A stretch of DNA of 15,391 nt. Origin: Nitrospirota bacterium (GTDB lineage: Bacteria > Nitrospirota > UBA9217). A program made the position numbers and the translations under genes. Where the stretch lies: positions 1 to 15,391 of the forward strand of contig JAOUEV010000073.1 of assembly GCA_029858565.1 (NCBI GenBank), given 5' to 3'. The notes beneath the pieces are model-generated. The model saw only the letters and a list, made by a program, of their open reading frames with translations, had not been told where the DNA came from and made no database searches. This document shows positions 1 through 14,286 of the stretch, piece after piece; within the stretch, counting starts at the first letter, position 1, and every line of letters begins with the position of its first letter.

Positions 1-266
1 ACCGTGAACGCCACAAAAGCATTCTCGCCCATGTACGGCGCTATCGCGAACGGACGATTGGCATAGATGCCCATGAGCAGCGTGCCGATAAAGGCCGTCA
101 GGATCGTGGCGACCATTGAGGGGCCGAACGGCATGCCTGCGGCCTCAAGGATCTTCGGGTTCACGATGATGATGTAGGCCATGGTGACGAATGTCGTGAT
201 CCCGGCGATGACTTCCTGGCGGATAGTGGTGTTGTGCACTTCTAATTTGAAGTATTTACTCAGCAT
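1..266 (-). CDS. NCS2/AzgA-family purine permease (N-terminal part; runs off the left edge)
   Basis: Hand translation from ATG at 266 (GAGG RBS upstream): MLSKYFKLEVHNTTIRQEVIAGITTFVTMAYIIIVNPKILEAAGM...ANRPFAIAPYMGENAFVAFT. This matches the AzgA/PbuG-type N-terminus (E.AG.TTF.TMAYI..VNP.IL; AP.MG.NAF). Confidence 0.9.
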   Translation of the reverse strand, partial: MLSKYFKLEVHNTTIRQEVIAGITTFVTMAYIIIVNPKILEAAGMPFGPSMVATILTAFIGTLLMGIYANRPFAIAPYMGENAFVAFT

Positions 267-313
267 GGGCACCTCAAGAATGGATTTGCGTAGCTGTTTA
301 TTGCGACACCAGG

Positions 314-946
314 TCAATCATGAAAGGTGATACGGGAAATGCAGCCCTCGGCGCGAGACGATGTGTGCTGTGAGTTCACCTGGAATCGCAAACCGCTGAT
401 GTCGCCGGGGTCTTTGCCGAACAGTCGACGGAAGTCATCCTTGAGGTTCCGCGTAACTTCCATCCATTCCTTAAGTTTATTGGTCTTGTTCGCGACAACG
501 AGAATCTTGGCAGTGACGACCAAAGGCACAGAGAATTCGCCCTCCGTGCCGATAGGTGCATTGGTGTCCCAGATGTAATCGATCGCGTACCGGCCGCCGA
601 AAGCGACGACCATCTGCGCGGCCTGATCATCGGTTGAAGAATTCCGCAGATCTCCCTTAGGAGGGAGAACATCGGCCCGCCACCGGAAGGTGACGAAAGG
701 ATATTTATTAATATCGAGATCCATATCGCGCTGCAGGGAAAATGAAGAGTCAACACTGTCCAGGCAAATCGCCGTCGTATTCCCGTCGCTCATCTTGACC
801 ACCTTCGGTGTCCCTGATTTTACTTTGATTCTCCATTCCGCCGGAGAACCGTCGGAATTCAGCTTGGAGCCATCGAGTGCTTCAATGGTCGCGGCAGCGG
901 CACTGGATGCAACAAACAGAGCAACAACAAGAACACAGCGATACAT
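314..946 (-). CDS. DUF3047-domain secreted protein
   Basis: Signal peptide followed by DUF3047-like motifs (YP...F.WR, DD.AA...V.F, YIWD, W....RNL.DDFRRLFG.DP). ATG at 946 with GAGG RBS is preferred over TTG at 952. Confidence 0.8.
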   Translation of the reverse strand: MYRCVLVVALFVASSAAAATIEALDGSKLNSDGSPAEWRIKVKSGTPKVVKMSDGNTTAICLDSVDSSFSLQRDMDLDINKYPFVTFRWRADVLPPKGDLRNSSTDDQAAQMVVAFGGRYAIDYIWDTNAPIGTEGEFSVPLVVTAKILVVANKTNKLKEWMEVTRNLKDDFRRLFGKDPGDISGLRFQVNSQHTSSRAEGCISRITFHD

Positions 947-962
947 TTTCAACCTCGATTCA

Positions 963-992
963 AAGATAGCAAGTTCACCTACTAGTGTGCAA
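963..992 (-). promoter_or_regulatory. Candidate sigma70 promoter for the DUF3047 gene
   Basis: TTGCAC-18 bp-TATCTT with extended -10 TGn on the minus strand. Confidence 0.35.
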
Positions 993-1031
993 TCTGCGAT
1001 GAGTCAACTAAATAATAATTACGTCTTGAAA

Positions 1032-1088
1032 CATGAACACGGGCCTGACGCGCCGCATGGCGCGTCTCTGTCGAGGCTCAGGTTATTT
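1032..1088 (-). mobile_element. Integron attC site 1 (57 bp)
   Basis: Minus strand AAATAAC-CTGAGCCTCGACAGAGACGCGCCATGCGGCGCGTCAGGCCCGT-GTTCATG. Has AAC/GTT core boxes and imperfect arms with an extra C in L''. R'' overlaps the TAA of the cassette ORF. Confidence 0.8.
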
Positions 1089-1614
1089 ATTTGCTGATTC
1101 TGATCTGATCCATTTTGGGGATAATTTTGTTCAATCCCGAAAGAGCTTCATATATCATCCTGTTGTTTCTCTTATCTGCACCTTTTGCAATTTTATCGCT
1201 CGGGTAAGCCCGCTCTATTCTAATTATGTTTGCAGGTCGATTATCCCAGTATGGGCCGATGTTAATTACAGTGTCGGGATGATCAAAAGATGACAAACTT
1301 GTCCAAAAAGCACCCATATAGCATCTAACGCCGTTTGCGACAACGATAAAAGATCTACCATGGACACCAATATCTTCTACCGTTGGTAATTTCCTTTTTC
1401 CCGCATCCGTTAGCACAATCTCATGTTTATTCCAATCGTATGAAATGATATCTGCGGCAGTGATTATCGGCTTTTTATTCAGGATTGCCTTATGCAAATT
1501 ATCAGTCTTGTTTTCGGTTAGATAAATTTCAAACGTCGGATTTGTCGCCGTGATACCTAATCGTGAGACGATCAATAGGAATAGCAGGATTATTATTCTG
1601 TGACTTAATCTCAT
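1087..1614 (-). CDS. Gene-cassette hypothetical secreted protein (175 aa)
   Basis: AT-rich ORF with a signal-peptide-like N-terminus and AGGTG RBS. Bounded by GTTATTT upstream and its complement AAATAAC downstream. Confidence 0.85.
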   Translation of the reverse strand: MRLSHRIIILLFLLIVSRLGITATNPTFEIYLTENKTDNLHKAILNKKPIITAADIISYDWNKHEIVLTDAGKRKLPTVEDIGVHGRSFIVVANGVRCYMGAFWTSLSSFDHPDTVINIGPYWDNRPANIIRIERAYPSDKIAKGADKRNNRMIYEALSGLNKIIPKMDQIRISK

Positions 1615-1626
1615 GATTCACCTATA

Positions 1627-1685
1627 AAATAACACCGACGTGAGGGGCGCGGCTTTTCGCGACCCTCTCGACGGAGTCGTTATAC
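1627..1685 (-). mobile_element. Integron attC site 2 (59 bp)
   Basis: Minus strand GTATAAC-GACTC-CGT[C]GAG[A]GGG[T]CGCG-AAAAGC-CGCGCCCCTCACG-TCGGT-GTTATTT. The 13-bp stem is perfect once three extrahelical bases are removed. Confidence 0.9.
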
Positions 1686-1695
1686 GTCGTCATCG

Positions 1696-2235
1696 TTATG
1701 AAATGCGATAAATAACATTGTCGAAATTATTGTCATTCGCAACTTCAAGCGCTTGAAAGGCCGCAGGGTTTAATGATTGCTTTCTGTATGTGATATCATC
1801 CTCTTCATCTGAATGTCTTCCGTTCGCATTTGTGAAGCTCACTTCTAGTGGGGTATCGACAATGGCCAATATCCCTTTTGCGATATTCAGAGCGTCGGCA
1901 GTTGTATAAGCACTATCACCCCAAAAATCAAAACGCAAATCACTTACCTCTTGCTTTCTTGAAAATAGGTAGTGAATGAGAAAATAAGGAATTAGAATGG
2001 AAAGCAATGGTATCCAAATCACATAAATAACTACCTTTATTCCTACGGGGATTTTCCACCGAAACACTTTGAATAGCTGCTTGATCGGAAGAACAAGGCT
2101 TGAAAGTTGGCTGTTCCTATCAATTAATTCATATTGCGGGGTAGGAGTGGACCTGACAAGTTCTTTAATTTTGCCCTTTAAAATAGCTTTAGGGACAGAC
2201 GTGTTGAATTTGCAACTGAGAGTTACCTCGATCAT
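1696..2235 (-). CDS. Gene-cassette hypothetical membrane protein (179 aa)
   Basis: AT-rich ORF with a central hydrophobic segment (VVIYVIWIPLLSILIPYFLIHYLF). Bounded by GTTATACGT and ACGTATAAC. Confidence 0.85.
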   Translation of the reverse strand: MIEVTLSCKFNTSVPKAILKGKIKELVRSTPTPQYELIDRNSQLSSLVLPIKQLFKVFRWKIPVGIKVVIYVIWIPLLSILIPYFLIHYLFSRKQEVSDLRFDFWGDSAYTTADALNIAKGILAIVDTPLEVSFTNANGRHSDEEDDITYRKQSLNPAAFQALEVANDNNFDNVIYRIS

Positions 2236-2261
2236 CGCGATTCACCCTTATTCTTACCTAC

Positions 2262-2319
2262 GTATAACGCGCGCGTGAGGAGCGTGTTTTTCGCGACTCA
2301 CTCGACGCGCAGGTTGGCA
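2262..2319 (-). mobile_element. Integron attC site 3 (58 bp)
   Basis: Minus strand TGCCAAC-CTGCGCGT[C]GAG[T]GAG[T]CGCGAAAAACACGCTCCTCACGCGCGC-GTTATAC. Same architecture as attC2 and clearly related in sequence. Confidence 0.9.
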
Positions 2320-2355
2320 TTACTTCCGATCTGCATGCTCAGTTCTATTCCGCTA

Positions 2356-2865
2356 TTAACCGTAAGTTGGTTCCGGTATATTCTTCAAGACCCAGGGAGC
2401 AGTTACTATGAGTTCAATTTGAAATGCATCACTAGCAGGGTCGTCACCTACAGAAGGCTCAATTGGCAAATAAATGACTGGGCTAATTAAAATACCACAC
2501 GCATTATCGACCGATTCACCACGTTCAACTTTTGGAAGACCGACTAATTTTCTTAAACTATTTGTGAAACTTTTATGGCCCGCTAAAACTTTACCAAAGC
2601 AAACATGAGCCACACTGTAATAATGGAATCCAGGTTCTTTTCTCGCAGTATGAACAAGGTAAACTTCCTTTTGTATGTCTATGCCTAGCTTTTCATAAAG
2701 ATCGATAATCTCTTGAGGATAAATTTTGCTTTTTACAGCTGCGAAATTATCATCCGTATCGCTATTTGGTAATTCTGCAGGGGGAGGAATACTGATACCT
2801 TTATAGAAATTACGATTTTTTTCAAATTCATAATCGAGCTTCCATTTTTTGTAGGAACAAATCAT
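2356..2865 (-). CDS. Gene-cassette hypothetical protein (169 aa), first cassette
   Basis: AT-rich ORF followed by attC3, with an AAGGG RBS-like sequence upstream. Confidence 0.8.
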   Translation of the reverse strand: MICSYKKWKLDYEFEKNRNFYKGISIPPPAELPNSDTDDNFAAVKSKIYPQEIIDLYEKLGIDIQKEVYLVHTARKEPGFHYYSVAHVCFGKVLAGHKSFTNSLRKLVGLPKVERGESVDNACGILISPVIYLPIEPSVGDDPASDAFQIELIVTAPWVLKNIPEPTYG

Positions 2866-2888
2866 CTGAATTAGCCCTTTTTGATACC

Positions 2889-2953
2889 AGACAACCAGTG
2901 TTTATCTTGCCGTGCGCGGCAAGTAAAGTACGGATTTTCGTTCTTTACTTGCC
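2889..2953 (-). other. Candidate attI-like site with repeated GGCAAG(A)TAAA motif
   Basis: Minus strand ...AGATAAA-CACTG-GTTGTCT lies directly before the first cassette (compare attI1 CCCTAAA-ACAAA-GTTRRRY). Motif copies are at 2901-2911, 2918-2928 (inverted) and 2943-2953. Confidence 0.4.
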
Positions 2954-3133
2954 CTGCAAATATCGTGCATTAAATCGGTCGTAAGTTGTTTAAATGATTC
3001 TCTAGAGCCCAAACCTACGAATTGCGAGCCGTAACCTGCAAGCCCTGATGTCATCTGCTGTATCATGATTTCAGGAAGAATCTCTTGCTCGACGACTATA
3101 TCATACTTCCACTATTACAAACAACCTCATCTT

Positions 3134-3637
3134 TTACAGCTCCTTCAATATGACATCCCCTATCGGCTTCCTCTCTGCCATTCCGCCCTTCCCTTCCGGA
3201 TGCCCCAGCGCAACGACTGCCATCAGTTCATACTGATCAGAAAGTCCGCACAACTCCCGCACCTGCTTTGCGCTCTTCAATATCTCACCAAGCCAGACGC
3301 CTCCGAGCCCCATCCCGTGAGCAGCAAGCAGCATGTTCTGGATGCACGCTCCCATGGACTGGTGGTCCTTGGTCTCATGGTACATTGCTTCCTTGTCGAT
3401 GAATACAACGATACAGGCAGGTGCTTTGTCGATAACGTGGGAGTACTTGGTAAGCGATGATAGTTTGTGCAGGAGATCTTTATTCTGGATCGTAACGAAC
3501 CGCCAGGGCTGATTGTTCAGGCCTGAAGGGGCCATAGTGCCGGCTTTGATGATCTCCCGGAGCTGTTCCCGGGTCACGGGCTGGTCAGTGAATTTGCGAA
3601 TACTGCGGCGGGTATGAAGTCCTTCCAGAAGGTCCAT
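3134..3637 (-). CDS. Nitroreductase family protein (FMN-dependent)
   Basis: RRSIRKF, APSGLNNQPWRF and QNMLLAAHGMGLGGVW motifs. True start is MDLLEG at 3637 with a G-rich RBS; the upstream ORF extension is repeat-derived. Confidence 0.93.
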   Translation of the reverse strand: MDLLEGLHTRRSIRKFTDQPVTREQLREIIKAGTMAPSGLNNQPWRFVTIQNKDLLHKLSSLTKYSHVIDKAPACIVVFIDKEAMYHETKDHQSMGACIQNMLLAAHGMGLGGVWLGEILKSAKQVRELCGLSDQYELMAVVALGHPEGKGGMAERKPIGDVILKEL

Positions 3638-3668
3638 ATTAGCCCCCCAAAATAATATCAAAGGCATC

Positions 3669-3803
3669 TCGCGCAAAGCCGCAAAGTCGCAAAGTGAAAG
3701 CAACATCAAGTAGATAGTGATATTCTTGTAAGTCTTTTAGAAGATACAGAGGCTTGGTCTTAGATTCCCTTGCCTTTCTTAGCGCCTTTGCGGCTTTGCG
3801 CGA
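3669..3803. repeat. Intergenic palindromic element with arms of 3 x 8-mer (NCGCAAAG)
   Basis: gcgcaaag ccgcaaag tcgcaaag (3671-3694) faces cttagcgc ctttgcgg ctttgcgc (3778-3801). Perfect 18-bp inverted repeat at 3669-3686 / 3786-3803. Confidence 0.9.
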
Positions 3804-3837
3804 AACAGCTTTTTGCCTTGGCAGTTCCGTTCGGCTG

Positions 3838-4593
3838 TTATTGTATGACTCTTCTTCGCATCAACCTGAACGGCACCGGCGCCAGGGCCGTGGCAACGAC
3901 CACGATCCAGACGATGTTGCCGACAACGCCGGAAACATGGCCAGCGGAGAATGCCCGGCAGACGTTCACCAGATGATAGAGCGGCGTGAACCAGGCGATG
4001 CCGGCCACGGCCTTGGGAAGGGTCTCGACAGGAAAGAAGATGCCCGAGAACAGGAACAGGGGCGTCATGAAGAGCGTATAGAAGTAGCTGAAGGAATCGA
4101 TGCCCGGCACGAGCGCGGCGGTGATCATCGAGACCTCGGCGAAGATAAGGCCGCAGAAGAAGATGACCGGTATCGTGAGCAGCAGCAGCGGCGAGTCCAC
4201 AAGCCCGAACAGGGCGACCACGACCATGATCGTGATGCCGTACATGACGCTCTTGACCGCTGCCCAGGCAAGTTCCGCGGCCACCAGTTCGTCGATCCCC
4301 ACCGGCGTGGCCAGAATCGCGTCAAAGGTCTTCTGAAAGGTCATGCGGATATAGGTGCCGTAGGTACATTCATAGACCGCAGCGAACATGGACGACGAAG
4401 CGATGATGCCCGGTCCGATGAATTTTATGTAGGGCACACCGTTGATGTCGCTCACGAACACTCCCAGACCCATGCCCATTGCCACGAGGTACAGGATCGG
4501 TTCGATGAAGTTCAGCGCGAAGCTGGACTTGTACAGCTTGGTATAGACCGTCCAGTGCCGCTGCAATACTCTCCAGGCGCCCTTAATCCGCAA
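3838..4593 (-). CDS. ABC-2 type transporter permease (NodJ-like)
   Basis: Multiple TM segments with EP.LYL..MG.GLG, TFDAILATP, FSGIFFP and PLYH motifs. TTG start overlaps the ATPase gene end. Confidence 0.9.
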   Translation of the reverse strand: MRIKGAWRVLQRHWTVYTKLYKSSFALNFIEPILYLVAMGMGLGVFVSDINGVPYIKFIGPGIIASSSMFAAVYECTYGTYIRMTFQKTFDAILATPVGIDELVAAELAWAAVKSVMYGITIMVVVALFGLVDSPLLLLTIPVIFFCGLIFAEVSMITAALVPGIDSFSYFYTLFMTPLFLFSGIFFPVETLPKAVAGIAWFTPLYHLVNVCRAFSAGHVSGVVGNIVWIVVVATALAPVPFRLMRRRVIQ

Positions 4594-10874: not shown

Positions 10875-11960
10875 TCAATGAGACGAGCGCCCCTCATCAG
10901 TCCCGCCGGCCACCGGAGCCGCGGACGACGCTGATGCGGCGATATCGAGGATCGCCACGCCGTCCAGGTACTCCTTCGTCCGATACTCCGTCAGCTGCAG
11001 CAGCTTTTCGATACAACTGTTCATGCGCAGACACTGGTCCCTGATGGTCTCGATATCCTCCCTGGCCACCGGCTCCTGCAGCCTGACGCTGTCCGCCAGC
11101 ATCTCGAGCCGGCAGTGGACCACCGTCATCGGCTGACGCATCTCGTGGGCCACGGCGCCCGCGAGCTCCATGGCAGCCGACAGTTTATGCTGAAGGATGC
11201 TCCTGCGCATCTCCGCGGTAAGCCGTTTCGAGAGCAGCCACGCCACGACCGCGGTTGACAGCAAACCGATCACTCCGATGATCGCCAGGGAAATGAGAGA
11301 ACCCCGTGTGTGGGCATCCCGGATCGCGTCATACTTTCCCCGGGGGATCCGTATGCTGATCCCTCCCTTGACATCGCCGACCTGATACCCCTGCTGTCCA
11401 TGGCATCTCAGGCAAGGCCGCTCGATCCGCAGCGGGATGACGGCCCGGTAGACCGGACCACCTGCCTCCTCGAATGTCCCGTCGGATTCCGTTCCCTCGC
11501 TCCCCGAGAGCACCCCAAGGACGTGCGTTTCCCATTCGTCCGGCGCGTTGGCGGGATTCAAGGGATGTCGCCCGATGATCCGGAACGAGGCGCCCGACCG
11601 CTGGCGGGAAATGGCCGACAGCTGCCGGCTCATATACGCGGGATTGATCTTGGTGTACCGTTTCCCGTCAACAGTCACGATGTCCCGATCGGGATCTGCC
11701 AGGTAGGGATTGGGCGGGACCTCGGGCGTGACCGCCGCATAGAGCCCTCCGTGCGATGCATTCCACAACCGCGCGACGGAGATCTGCTCATAGATGGCGC
11801 GGGATGTCTCGCGAAGAACGCTCAGTTCCGCTTCCTCGGAACGGCGCGCCTCGCGCAGCGACAGGAACGTCAGCAGGCCGGCTACAATGACCAGGAACGG
11901 CGCCAGGAGGAACAGGAATGCATGCTGCCCCTTTGCGGACGTCAGCATACGGTCGACCAT
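10875..11960 (-). CDS. DUF3365 (Tll0287-like) c-heme sensor with HisKA phospho-acceptor domain but no ATPase domain
   Basis: TM - NPAYMSRQ...PLNPANAPDEWE...CLRCH...GDVKGGISI - TM - H-box AHEMRQPM. Stops without N/G1/G2 boxes. Start is uncertain (12002, 11960 or 11948; 11960 has an AAGGG RBS). Confidence 0.82.
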   Translation of the reverse strand: MVDRMLTSAKGQHAFLFLLAPFLVIVAGLLTFLSLREARRSEEAELSVLRETSRAIYEQISVARLWNASHGGLYAAVTPEVPPNPYLADPDRDIVTVDGKRYTKINPAYMSRQLSAISRQRSGASFRIIGRHPLNPANAPDEWETHVLGVLSGSEGTESDGTFEEAGGPVYRAVIPLRIERPCLRCHGQQGYQVGDVKGGISIRIPRGKYDAIRDAHTRGSLISLAIIGVIGLLSTAVVAWLLSKRLTAEMRRSILQHKLSAAMELAGAVAHEMRQPMTVVHCRLEMLADSVRLQEPVAREDIETIRDQCLRMNSCIEKLLQLTEYRTKEYLDGVAILDIAASASSAAPVAGGTDEGRSSH

Positions 11961-12116
11961 GGATGCCCTTGCCGATGTGGCGCTGTTCACCTGCCTGCTC
12001 ATGGCCGCGGAGCGGGCGGTGAGACCGCCCTGCCCTCCCGTGCCTGTGCATGCAGCGCTCCGAGCATTTCCTGCGTCGCACGGCTATATTGGATTATTAC
12101 TATCCTTATTAGCGGC

Positions 12117-12145
12117 ATAATACTCGTTCCTGCCGGTCGCGTCAA
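12117..12145 (-). promoter_or_regulatory. sigma70-type promoter upstream of the heme/HisKA sensor
   Basis: TTGACG-17 bp-TATTAT on the minus strand, in an intergenic region. Confidence 0.65.
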
Positions 12146-12299
12146 GCAATTCCGCCTGCGCGCAGCAGGGAGCCGTCTGCAGGCCAGGGCATATCGCGGC
12201 CGGTCAGCGGGCGCGAGAGCGAAATGACGGAACCTCATAGGGCAGGCGCGCCGCTGGCTGCCGCGATCTTTCTTCAACGGCGCTCCGGTGGGCGGGTTA

Positions 12300-13211
12300 T
12301 CAGTGCTTCTTGAGCGCGTCCAAAGCGTTCTTGGCGCTCATCCGCACAGTATCCATCCCCTCATACAGCCTATCGATCTCGTCATCGGTGTTCCGGCGGT
12401 ATTCCCGGGACAGGTCCATGTCCAGATTCCCCACGGCCATTTTCTGCGCCAGCATCGTCATCCTGCCGATCCTGTTCATGATCAGACGCCTGAACAGAAT
12501 GAAGCTGACCAGGAGCACGGCGGAGATCAGCGCGAGCAACGCTATCGTTGCGGCCGGGGAAAGCGAGAGGAGCGGCGGGGCGGGAAGGCTCACGGTTATG
12601 ATCCCCCGGATATCCCCTTCACGGTAGCCAAAACCGCGCCCCACGCCGTACTTGTCCACCACTTCCCGGGGCGCGTCTTTGGGCGAGCCGTGGCATCGCA
12701 GACAGGGTTTGGCAACCATAACCGGGATGGCAAACCGGTAGGTCGATCCCTCGTAGACTTCCTGAAAGTCCTTCCGTTCGCTCTCCGGACGGAGGAGATC
12801 AAGCTTGAAGGCATGGATCGCAGCGGATTCGAAGGCATCCGGACTGTTCTTCGCGTTCCGGTAATTATCGCTTGTCACACGGAAGCTTGCATGAGACCCT
12901 GTCCGTGCTACGATCTGTGACAGTTCCCGGGTAGCCAGGGCCGGGTTCTTTGAATAGAACGTCCTGCCGCCCGTACCCGTCTGTCCCAGGTAATCGGCCA
13001 TGTCCGGCTGCAGCGCATCCACCCACACGACACCGGCCCCAGCGACCCAGCTGCGAAACGCGATGACCTGCTCCGCGACAGCGCGAGCCGTGTTCCGGAG
13101 CATGGTCTCCCGCAGGCTCCACATTGCGATGGCGCCCGCCGCCATGGTCATGCCGATAACGATCAGGATGATCGCGATGAACTTCACGTTCAGAGATCTT
13201 GCTCGAAGCAT
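12300..13211 (-). CDS. DUF3365 (Tll0287-like) c-heme sensor with HAMP domain and no output domain
   Basis: AAGGAG RBS before ATG 13211. TM - KNPALATRELS...NSPDAFE...CLRCHG...GDIRGII - TM - HAMP (...GNLD...DEIDRL), then stop. Confidence 0.85.
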   Translation of the reverse strand: MLRARSLNVKFIAIILIVIGMTMAAGAIAMWSLRETMLRNTARAVAEQVIAFRSWVAGAGVVWVDALQPDMADYLGQTGTGGRTFYSKNPALATRELSQIVARTGSHASFRVTSDNYRNAKNSPDAFESAAIHAFKLDLLRPESERKDFQEVYEGSTYRFAIPVMVAKPCLRCHGSPKDAPREVVDKYGVGRGFGYREGDIRGIITVSLPAPPLLSLSPAATIALLALISAVLLVSFILFRRLIMNRIGRMTMLAQKMAVGNLDMDLSREYRRNTDDEIDRLYEGMDTVRMSAKNALDALKKH

Positions 13212-13266
13212 ACGAGGGTCTCCTTCTTTGGTCCGCGTGCCGTGCTCCCCGGAGAGAGCAACGATG

Positions 13267-14286
13267 CTAGCCGCCGATCTGCGACAGGGATACCAGGGAG
13301 GGCGCCGTCGTACCCAGCCGTTCGATGAAATGTCCTGCAGGTTTGGAACGAACAGCCTGCTCGATGAGGTCCGCGAGGTCCCGGTCGGCCGACCGCCGGC
13401 GCAGGTGCGGCCGCACATCGATGATCTGGTCCGAGAAAAGGCAGGGCCGGAGCTTGCCGTCGGCGCTGAGCCGAAGGCGGTTGCAGGACCCGCAGAAATG
13501 GTCGCTCACAGGGCTGATGAACCCGATCACGCCGCGCGCGCCGCTCAGGCGGTAGTTCCGCGACGGACCGCCTCCGCGGAACAGAAGCGGCGTCAGCCTC
13601 CCCAGGGACGCCACCTGCGCCCGCACCTCGCCGCTCGTGACGCAGTCGGTCCTTCTCCAGGCATTCCCCCCTGTCGGCATGAACTCGATGAACCGTATAT
13701 GGAAGTCACGCTCATAGGTCAGCCGGGCGAAGTCCCTGACCTCATCATCGTTGATGCCCCGCAGGGGGACCATGTTGATCTTGAGCGGAGCAAGTCCTGC
13801 TTCCACGGCGGCCTCGATCCCGCGCCAGACAGTGTCAAGCGCGCCTCCCCGCGTGATGTTCCGGTAGCGCTCCGGATCCATCGTGTCGAGGCTCACATTC
13901 ACCCGGTCCAGGCCCGCATGTTTCAACTGCTCTGCCATCCCTTCCAGCAGCAGGCCGTTCGTGGTGATGCTGAGGTCGCGGATGCCGACATCCTGCTTCA
14001 GAGCGCGTATCAGGGACAGGATGTCCCCCCGCACCAGCGGCTCGCCGCCGGTGATCCGCACCTTCCGGAGCCCGTACCGGTAGGCGATCTGCACGAACCG
14101 TACGATCTCCGTCGTGGAGAGCACCTCATGCTTCTCCATGCAGTTCACGCCCGCAGCAGGCATGCAGTAGACGCACTTGAGGTTGCATCGATCGGTAACG
14201 GAAATACGGAGATAATCGATCCTGCGGAGCGTCCCCTCCCCGGGGACCGGAAGGACGGCCGGCATGCTGCTCCTCGTGCACCCCAT
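13267..14286 (-). CDS. moaA: GTP 3',8-cyclase MoaA (radical SAM)
   Basis: YLRISVTDRCNLKCVYC, TGGEPL, FCGSCNRLR...PCL and C-terminal IGG. GAGGAGG RBS. Confidence 0.96.
   Translation of the reverse strand: MGCTRSSMPAVLPVPGEGTLRRIDYLRISVTDRCNLKCVYCMPAAGVNCMEKHEVLSTTEIVRFVQIAYRYGLRKVRITGGEPLVRGDILSLIRALKQDVGIRDLSITTNGLLLEGMAEQLKHAGLDRVNVSLDTMDPERYRNITRGGALDTVWRGIEAAVEAGLAPLKINMVPLRGINDDEVRDFARLTYERDFHIRFIEFMPTGGNAWRRTDCVTSGEVRAQVASLGRLTPLLFRGGGPSRNYRLSGARGVIGFISPVSDHFCGSCNRLRLSADGKLRPCLFSDQIIDVRPHLRRRSADRDLADLIEQAVRSKPAGHFIERLGTTAPSLVSLSQIGG

Follow-up and report, generated by a model that had tools for sequence, protein, structure and literature searches.

What accounts for three AT-rich genes of no recognizable family that lie head to tail among ordinary chromosomal genes of a Nitrospirota bacterium, each followed by a short palindrome? 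The question is raised by a stretch of 15,391 nucleotides, called here the window, which is the entire contig C36 (JAOUEV010000073.1) of a draft genome (assembly GCA_029858565.1, here G000; 3.9 Mb in 144 contigs, 57% G+C). The initial annotation, made from the letters of the window, had read positions 1032-2895 as an array of three integron cassettes with no integrase nearby, that is, clustered attC sites without integron-integrases (a CALIN). The analysis reported here arrives at the same reading with a probability of about 0.88: the array is a CALIN of three cassettes, possibly four, without an integrase of its own, lying between a chromosomal nitroreductase gene on one side and a DUF3047 gene and a permease gene on the other.

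Organization of the Cassette Array

Three open reading frames (ORFs) follow each other on the minus strand at 2865->2356 (protein P0001, 169 amino acids), 2235->1696 (P0002, 179 amino acids) and 1614->1087 (P0003, 175 amino acids). All three have a Shine-Dalgarno-like purine run 4-17 nt ahead of the ATG and, within 25-45 nt after the ORF, a G+C-rich imperfect palindrome that runs from AAC to GTT. The trio of co-oriented, AT-rich ORFs with palindromes behind them was thus found as described in the initial annotation, and the spans measured with 7-nt boxes on the plus strand are 56 nt (2262-2317), 59 nt (1627-1685) and 57 nt (1032-1088). The G+C content is 34-46% across positions ~900-3100 and ~54-60% in the flanks, a fall of ~15-20 points.

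Counted from the nitroreductase side, and all on the minus strand, cassette 1 occupies 2268-2894 (627 bp), cassette 2 1633-2267 (635 bp) and cassette 3 1038-1632 (595 bp). Each would consist of one promoter-less ORF and one attC site of ~60 nt. The three sites lie 595 and 635 bp apart, start to start; a CALIN is defined by at least two attC sites that are no more than 4 kb apart.

Structure of the attC Sites

An nhmmer profile was built from the three palindromes of the window and, after iteration on the genome, had gathered 40 similar sites (E<=0.01), spread over 23 contigs. Seventeen of these, none of them from the window, were aligned and used to build a covariance model, R1. RNAalifold folded this alignment into a hairpin whose single-base bulges are restricted to the 3' arm. 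With the AAC/GTT pairs added, 90.8% of the alignment cells were paired, against 29-52% when the partners were slid. Compensatory changes were present in 9 of the 16 pairs, and the observed covariation score was reached by none of 500 shuffles. The GTT is invariant among the 17 reference sites and the AAC nearly so.

When the window was searched with R1 with all filters off, exactly three strong, full-length matches were obtained, all on the plus strand and each directly 3' of a minus-strand ORF, so that the covariance-model search proposed with the initial annotation recovered all three sites in a strand-specific manner. The site of cassette 1 (2260-2321; AAC 2266-2268, GTT 2311-2313) scored 65.2 bits (E 1.9e-20) and has three single-base bulges (A, A, G) on its 3' arm. 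The site of cassette 2 (1625-1687; AAC 1631-1633, GTT 1679-1681) scored 42.4 bits (E 1.9e-12), and that of cassette 3, at the distal end of the array (1030-1090; AAC 1036-1038, GTT 1082-1084), 58.9 bits (E 3.1e-18). The remaining matches in the window, including the reverse strand of 2260-2321, did not exceed 9.8 bits, compared with 42-65 bits for these three sites. Folded as single-stranded DNA, the plus strands of the sites of cassettes 3, 2 and 1 gave z = -3.65, -3.99 and -2.10 against dinucleotide shuffles.

An attC site is expected to show an R'' box ending in AAC and an R' box beginning with GTT, ~57-141 nt apart, and both boxes are found in all three sites of the window, together with an imperfect hairpin that shows covariation and that they fit over its full length. 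In canonical attC sites the bottom strand bears the extrahelical G and T bulges, opposite the top strand with the cassette genes. The sites of the window agree with this polarity, since their bulges (G, then T/A, then T/A) are confined to the 3' arm of the plus strand and the minus strand encodes all three ORFs. The Rfam models gave no match at gathering scores anywhere in the window; this library apparently holds no attC family.

Cassette Boundaries and the Proximal End of the Array

An integron integrase would cut between G and TT, and the start of an inserted cassette would for this reason be the exact complement of its own end box. As written on the minus strand, cassette 3 starts with GTTATTT and ends with AAATAAC, complementary at 7/7 positions, and cassette 2 starts with GTTATACGT and ends with ACGTATAAC, complementary at 9/9. 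In mononucleotide shuffles of the interval an exactly complementary box appeared anywhere in 4.25% (7-mer) and 0.44% (9-mer) of cases. The two boxes of one and the same site agree in situ at 0-2 of the 4 positions outside AAC/GTT in the window, and at a mean of 1.23 of 4 in a wider set (n=22). Both patterns had been pointed out in the initial annotation, the exact match at the cassette boundaries for these same two cassettes, and both are borne out. The same footprint was seen in the corresponding gap of a relative of the same genus (G001), in which the start of the last cassette and its own end box, GTTAGGTGC and GCACCTAAC, match at 9/9 positions; in a relative of another genus (G012) the match was 8/9 by eye and 6/7 by script. 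The boundary boxes are the footprint of recombination at G^TT.

The three cassettes of the annotated interval stand, and its proximal limit at 2895 may not, as the array possibly begins at 3124. The segment 2895-3124 may be a fourth cassette because its boundary boxes, GTTGTTT (3125->3119) and AAACAAC (2991->2985), are exact complements (7/7, a value reached by 1.6% of shuffles) and the low G+C content continues across it, to ~3100. This possible, unproven cassette would measure 230 bp on the minus strand, with an ORF of 54 amino acids (3066->2902) and an atypical palindromic site of 103 nt (2889-2991). The site folds (z about -3.4), but its minimum-free-energy structure leaves the R boxes unpaired, and R1 found no match to it beyond a partial one of 6.5 bits. 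Positions 3012-3080 (69 nt), which cover the start of the 54-amino-acid ORF, are 85.5% identical to positions 11693-11761 of contig C60 of the same genome. The copy on C60 likewise has a nitroreductase gene immediately ahead of it, encoding a paralogue with 33% identity to that of the window, and a low-G+C block containing two R1 sites behind it. A query of 133 nt from the proximal segment retrieved, among 41 genomes, only this C60 copy (86% over 69 nt) and two weak matches, and the segment is thus not widespread.

Integrases and the attC Family of the Lineage

No integrase is encoded in the window, as had been claimed: a six-frame search with the integron integrase model TIGR02249 (E<=0.001), with stops read through, gave no match on the contig, and neither a transposase nor a recombinase was found among the proteins encoded in the window. 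The head gene of the array is the co-oriented nitroreductase; a complete integron would have a divergent intI there, with an attI and a cassette promoter, and the array does not qualify as one. The same search of the whole genome, which had been suggested as a check, yielded matches on contigs C137, C128, C26, C51, C41 and C5, of which two exceed the family cut-off of 265 bits. These two intact genes, at C137:1629-2552(+) (380.1 bits) and C128:1626-2561(-) (353.6 bits), have no internal stops and match TIGR02249 in one stretch (model positions 8-313 and 3-313, respectively), as an integron integrase (IntI) should; against the XerC and XerD models both give two separate stretches only, the pattern that the IntI-specific insertion would produce. 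Moreover, residues 3-301 of the C137 protein align with 2A3V, the solved structure of the integron integrase IntI4 (E 5.7e-75), including the H-x-x-R and Y motifs.

R1 detected 39 sites in the genome at E<=0.01, and two of them lie beside these genes. One, C137:91-151(+), directly follows an ORF of 275 amino acids and 39% G+C that is divergent from intI, and the second intI likewise has a divergent ORF, of 174 amino acids, followed by the other site, C128:4416-4480(-). In side and strand, both sites conform to the canonical integron layout. The test was widened to 80 public loci that encode related IntI proteins (67-82% identity), mostly from metagenome-assembled genomes of Nitrospirota/Thermodesulfovibrionia with some Desulfobacterota. 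At E<=0.001, R1 gave 38 matches in 19 of the 80 loci, 37 of them upstream of intI and on its strand and the remaining one downstream and on the other strand. Among 40 relatives, R1 sites (E<=1e-5) were detected in 21 of the 24 other genomes of the same family, up to 61 in each, compared with 3 of the 16 genomes from outside it. An IntI above the cut-off was found in 11 of the 24. Because of this canonical placement beside intI and of the family-wide co-occurrence, the repeat family is the attC family of the resident IntI clade of the lineage, and the three sites of the window belong to it.

Several further observations concern this family. Single attC sites were found deep in contigs of 56-184 kb, far from their ends and from any IntI (C18:38143, C41:53937, C62:53329, C88:32486 and C19:33362), and by analogy they resemble the single attC sites lacking integrase (SALINs) of Loot et al. 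(bioRxiv 10.1101/2022.09.11.507474). The genome of G012, which is 100% complete in 10 contigs, contains 15 attC matches and no IntI at E<=1e-60. The tyrosine recombinase at C26:193-1005 matches the IntI model in two parts (2-180 and 235-313), without the IntI-specific middle, and the top-scoring attC of the genome (C26:3164-3227, 80.3 bits) lies 2.2 kb from it, on the non-canonical side and strand. Additionally, a stretch of ~30 nt with CTTCAAC at its end occurs at C67:90-122 and at C137:70-100, in front of attC bodies that differ between the two, and the same box occurs on C69 near position 882. One cassette start after different attC sites points to shuffled or duplicated cassettes, or to strain heterogeneity that the assembly collapsed.

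The Same Locus in Related Genomes

The locus was compared in four relatives that share the gene order ABC-ABC2-nitroreductase, three of the same genus (G001, G002 and G003) and G012. Seven further nitroreductase loci (60-67% identity) were excluded from the comparison of the gap as non-syntenic because they have no ABC neighbours. The nitroreductase orthologues of the four relatives are 73-79% identical to that of the window, aligned from residue 19-25. In three of them (G001, G002 and G012) a permease of the xanthine/uracil family, 76-93% identical to that of the window, comes directly after the variable gap. The nitroreductase gene of the window had been taken to occupy the position of a divergent intI, which is wrong: the gene has the same orientation as the cassettes and belongs to the conserved chromosomal genes of this synteny.

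The content of the gap differs from genome to genome. In G002 it is empty, at 128 bp and without attC. In G012 it measures 1.57 kb and contains an R1 site of 75.9 bits along with a gene for a lactonase-type beta-propeller, and in G001 it measures 1.54 kb, with an LEA_2 gene, an ORF of 127 amino acids and an R1 site of 23.4 bits. The attC sites of G001 and G012 have the same polarity relative to the nitroreductase as those of the window. In G003 (contig C49, locus 186-798) the nitroreductase is followed by a gene pair for a nucleotidyltransferase (PF01909) and a HepT-like RNase (PF01934), a toxin-antitoxin-type module similar to MntA/HepT, and then by the end of the contig; R1 found no attC in the 185 bp that remain. 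A span of 49 nt from AAC to GTT in the G002 gap, noticed by eye, was considered as a decayed attC and rejected, as R1 gave no match to it at E<=1.

Variable cassette content in relatives had been proposed as a check, with an invariant block of three genes as the opposite outcome. No such block was found because the gaps between nitroreductase and permease all differ, and the locus is hypervariable at the grain of single cassettes. The comparison also corrects the frame that had been drawn around the locus, from the nitroreductase to the DUF3047 gene, as the gene that follows the gap in relatives is the permease and DUF3047 lies outside the conserved frame. This gene (314-952, minus strand; PF11249), between the distal attC and the permease gene, is the sole copy in its genome and has no counterpart at the locus in the relatives. 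Its best relatives, of the same genus, are ~41% identical and are encoded on contigs other than that of the nitroreductase, compared with 73-88% identity for the neighbouring genes. The DUF3047 gene may have been acquired, possibly along with the array. That it might itself be a cassette was rejected, since no attC follows it and R1 gave no match in the 11 DUF3047 loci of relatives.

Metagenome Contigs Across the Array

The window was compared with the assembled contigs of four metagenome runs (X1-X4), of which X1 is probably the source of the genome; such contigs drop rare forms. One X1 contig of 13,554 nt spans positions 250-3700 with no differences and an even depth of 12.5. The other three runs, from other studies, contain small parts of the stretch: a fragment like cassette 1 at 96% came from X3, and fragments identical to cassette 2 were present in both X2 and X4. 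All four runs also contain contigs whose only match is to ~2265-2315, the attC of cassette 1, and which carry unrelated sequence on both sides, with loose ends at 2264-2266 and 2306-2315, which are the attC boxes. Divergence of contigs at exactly these boxes is how a recombination site common to many unrelated cassettes should look. This site is repeated in X1, in which its depth is 50.4 compared with 12.5 for the array. The cassette proteins are also recorded on a contig of 40,958 nt.

Origin of the Array and Alternative Explanations

According to the proposed mechanism, each attC would fold as single-stranded DNA, with the plus strand of the window as the recombinogenic bottom strand, into a hairpin in which the AAC/GTT boxes pair and one arm carries single extrahelical bases. 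Since two intact IntI genes are present on other contigs, each beside an attC of the same family, action in trans is possible, and the enzymes encoded on C137 or C128 could excise the cassettes as circles and re-insert them. The array would have begun with an insertion by an IntI behind the nitroreductase stop codon, at a secondary site of the chromosome, and would later have grown, or turned over, at its attC sites. We give this origin a slight preference over the local loss of an integron platform. If the cassettes are expressed at all, it would have to be by read-through from the ABC and nitroreductase genes, which have the same orientation, because a scan of 250-3900 for promoters and terminators detected nothing resembling either on the minus strand.

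Some of the results weigh against the reading of the array as a CALIN, or against the origin preferred for it. The attC assignment rests on the in-house model R1 and not on the curated attC model of IntegronFinder, and R1 is not fully independent, as its training sites were first collected with a profile seeded by the window; unlike the seed profile, however, it carries information on structure and strand. The boundary boxes of cassette 1 are complementary at just 5/7 positions, and among seven adjacent attC pairs in the genome 3-4 of 4 positions were complementary in four and only 1 of 4 in the other three. The absence of an intI or intI pseudogene within 4 kb, the distance used by IntegronFinder, was verified on the right side alone (12 kb), with only 1,029 bp between the array and the left end of the contig. 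Neither an attI nor a promoter for the array was identified, and attI cannot be searched for by sequence. No excision or empty-site joint skipping a cassette was seen in the contigs of the four runs, which says nothing on activity because contigs drop rare forms. Finally, the data do not tell whether the cassettes entered at a secondary site or an ancestral platform was lost.

The latter explanation, that the array is the relic of a complete sedentary integron, from which a later deletion took the intI/attI platform that had separated the nitroreductase from the first cassette, leaving the cassettes as a decaying remnant, is considered unlikely. The occurrence of attC-bearing inserts in the same gap in two genera (G000/G001 and G012) would fit an old, vertically inherited array, whereas the gap of G002, of the same genus, has no attC, and the cassette contents of G000, G001 and G012 have nothing in common. 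A decayed attC or attI might account for the atypical site at 2889-2991; yet there is no room for a remnant of the platform, as the nitroreductase stop codon lies only 8 nt before the first GTT boundary, and the reading-through of stops revealed no TIGR02249 match on the contig (E<=0.001). On that side, moreover, the nitroreductase is co-oriented with the cassettes and stands in the conserved ABC-ABC2 synteny. Loss of intI is listed by Cury et al. (2016; PMC4889954) as one route to a CALIN, but in the same survey, in which pseudogenes were sought within 10 kb, 95% of the CALINs are given as having no intI pseudogene nearby.

A different reading would make the gap after the nitroreductase a landing pad for cassettes that is conserved in the lineage, either an attG hot spot or a cryptic attI-like site, and that has been reused independently across genera, including genomes in which no IntI was found. 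The integron would then be dispersed, with one or two integrases serving dozens of scattered arrays and single cassettes. We regard this reading as tentative and, for now, doubtful. If it were true, the 3' context of the nitroreductase gene or the short 69-bp element would have a targeting role, and the C60 locus adds to it.

An assembly artefact, by which cassettes of a true integron were wrongly joined to the chromosomal context through the repeated attC sequence, is very improbable: the genome is a draft with many attC matches at contig ends, the attC at 2265-2315 is the repeated one in X1 and Néron et al. (2022; PMC9024848) caution that CALINs are overcounted in draft assemblies, but a single X1 contig covers the array (weak support, as the data are probably the same), the proteins recur on the 40,958-nt contig, both flanks lie on one contig in the order found in relatives, and relatives that were assembled independently have attC sites in the same gap. 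Equally remote is the explanation that the palindromes are REP-like (repetitive extragenic palindromic) elements, ends of miniature inverted-repeat transposable elements (MITEs) or transcription terminators behind three horizontally acquired genes, which the terminator-like placement of G+C-rich hairpins 3' of ORFs, the lack of an Rfam family and the home-made model would allow, but which is contradicted by the absence of a T-run after the stems and of a minus-strand terminator in the scan, the strongly strand-asymmetric scores, the conserved bulges on one arm, the nearly invariant AAC/GTT, the footprint of a circular intermediate at the boundaries, the canonical placement beside IntI in all but one of the matches and the co-occurrence with IntI-bearing lineages.

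Proteins Encoded by the Cassettes

No function could be assigned to the cassette proteins because searches of Pfam, NCBIfam and PADLOC returned no family for any of the three or for the 54-amino-acid ORF. P0001, predicted to be cytoplasmic, has one homologue (46% identity) among 5.8 billion clusters. Its neighbours in the protein atlas (score 0.93) are hypothetical clusters, one of them automatically named 'toxin-antitoxin system protein', which is a lead only, and an AlphaFold2 model made from a two-sequence alignment was unusable (mean predicted local distance difference test score 35.3, predicted template modelling score 0.26). P0002, with one central hydrophobic segment, is an orphan, without a homologue among the same clusters and with a single weak match (27% identity, E 1e-5) in an exhaustive search. 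P0003 has 10 homologues (30-61% identity), all unnamed or 'hypothetical', and an N-terminal segment that resembles a signal peptide, on which grounds it is a hypothetical secreted protein or lipoprotein; its atlas neighbours (0.90), again a lead only, are hypothetical and lipoprotein-family clusters. A search for related loci in genome contigs based on P0003 matched 64 pattern stretches, none of which was confirmed. Near-orphan, AT-rich genes of this kind are typical cassette content.

Flanking Genes and Other Features of the Window

The conserved upstream flank of the array is the nitroreductase-family gene (3134-3709, minus strand; PF00881, E 3e-34), whose true start is probably near 3646, and the conserved downstream flank is the 5' part of the xanthine/uracil-family permease gene (3-266, minus strand; PF00860), which runs off the end of the contig. 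The remaining genes of the window are ordinary chromosomal genes, namely an ABC transporter pair and genes for an ODP-family protein of the metallo-beta-lactamase fold, a P-type ATPase, a DsbD_2 protein, two sensor proteins, a MoaA-like protein and a molybdopterin-binding protein.

A 35-nt inverted repeat was observed between the ABC-2 permease gene and the nitroreductase gene, with arms at 3660-3694 and 3778-3812 that are 83% complementary and 83 nt apart. The left arm is highly repeated in the metagenome contigs (depth 43 compared with 12.5 in X1, and 236 in X2), with loose ends exactly at 3660 and 3694. It looks like a MITE-like element of 153 bp (3660-3812), or the ends of one, and is unrelated to the attC family. 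Two adjoining minus-strand genes in 10875-13418 each encode a Tll0287-like sensor domain, one together with HisKA and the other with HAMP. The second of these ORFs (12300-13418) overlaps the MoaA-like ORF (13267-14286) by ~150 nt as listed, and for this reason its start is probably further downstream.

Comparison With Known Integron Systems

The superintegron of Vibrio cholerae is a sedentary chromosomal integron with homogeneous attC sites (V. cholerae repeats, VCRs) of ~120-130 nt. The lineage studied here shares with it mutually similar, lineage-specific attC sites, mostly orphan and AT-richer cassettes and the same IntI family. Unlike the superintegron, the window has no adjacent intI, attI or cassette promoter (Pc), only 3-4 cassettes and attC sites of ~60 nt, and the sites of the genome are scattered over at least 22 contigs instead of forming one large array. 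Short attC sites of ~60 nt are known from the cassettes of mobile class 1 integrons, for example attC-aadA7. The sites of the window resemble attC-aadA7 in length class, AAC/GTT boxes and position of the ORF on the top strand, and in an imperfect hairpin whose extrahelical bases lie on one arm of the bottom strand. They differ from it in that the primary sequence appears unrelated, three single-base bulges lie 3 bp apart, the stretch by the R boxes is mostly paired and there is no open central spacer.

The closest match is with the CALINs themselves, which number 279 in the survey of 2016 (PMC4889954) and 2,961 in that of 2022 (PMC9024848). About half of the CALINs lie in replicons that also encode an IntI, and 83% have fewer than 6 sites (PMC4889954; PMC9024848). 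As in the catalogued examples, the array of the window is small, its cassettes are of unknown function, it contains no resistance genes and its genome also has complete integrons. The differences lie in the rarely sampled Nitrospirota host, a phylum for which the 2022 survey of complete genomes gives only 2 CALINs, both in one Nitrospira genome (PMC9024848), and in the assignment of the class by an in-house model and not by IntegronFinder. Since CALINs are common, with thousands in the later survey, the array is an ordinary CALIN in kind, an element type already well known. A literature search on integrons and attC sites in Nitrospirae turned up no paper on such arrays, which does not prove that none is in print.

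The array carries no resistance or virulence genes, and its value is modest and lies elsewhere. An uncultured Nitrospirota family carries a homogeneous family of ~60-nt attC sites in a phylum hardly sampled by complete-genome surveys, and three near-orphan cassette proteins are added to the pool of functionally unassigned cassette genes. Moreover, the locus is a clean natural example, with both flanks present, an empty site in a relative of the same genus, different cassettes in three relatives and two intact integrases elsewhere in the genome.

The insertion of cassettes at attG sites has been shown experimentally for IntI1 in Escherichia coli, with a very broad insertion landscape (Loot et al., bioRxiv 10.1101/2022.09.11.507474). 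The cassettes of the window resemble the attG insertions and SALINs presented in that preprint in lying outside a platform, beside chromosomal genes, with a bare GTT 8 nt after a stop codon, and the genome resembles the SALIN cases in having many single attC sites deep in large contigs and an IntI available in trans. Unlike the attG use described there, that proposed here is inferred, and the same gap is filled in three related genomes, which is more like a hot spot or an inherited array. The locus is a usable test case for the question left by Cury et al. (2016) and Loot et al., namely whether a small CALIN is the product of insertion in trans at a secondary (attG) site or what remains when a complete integron decays.

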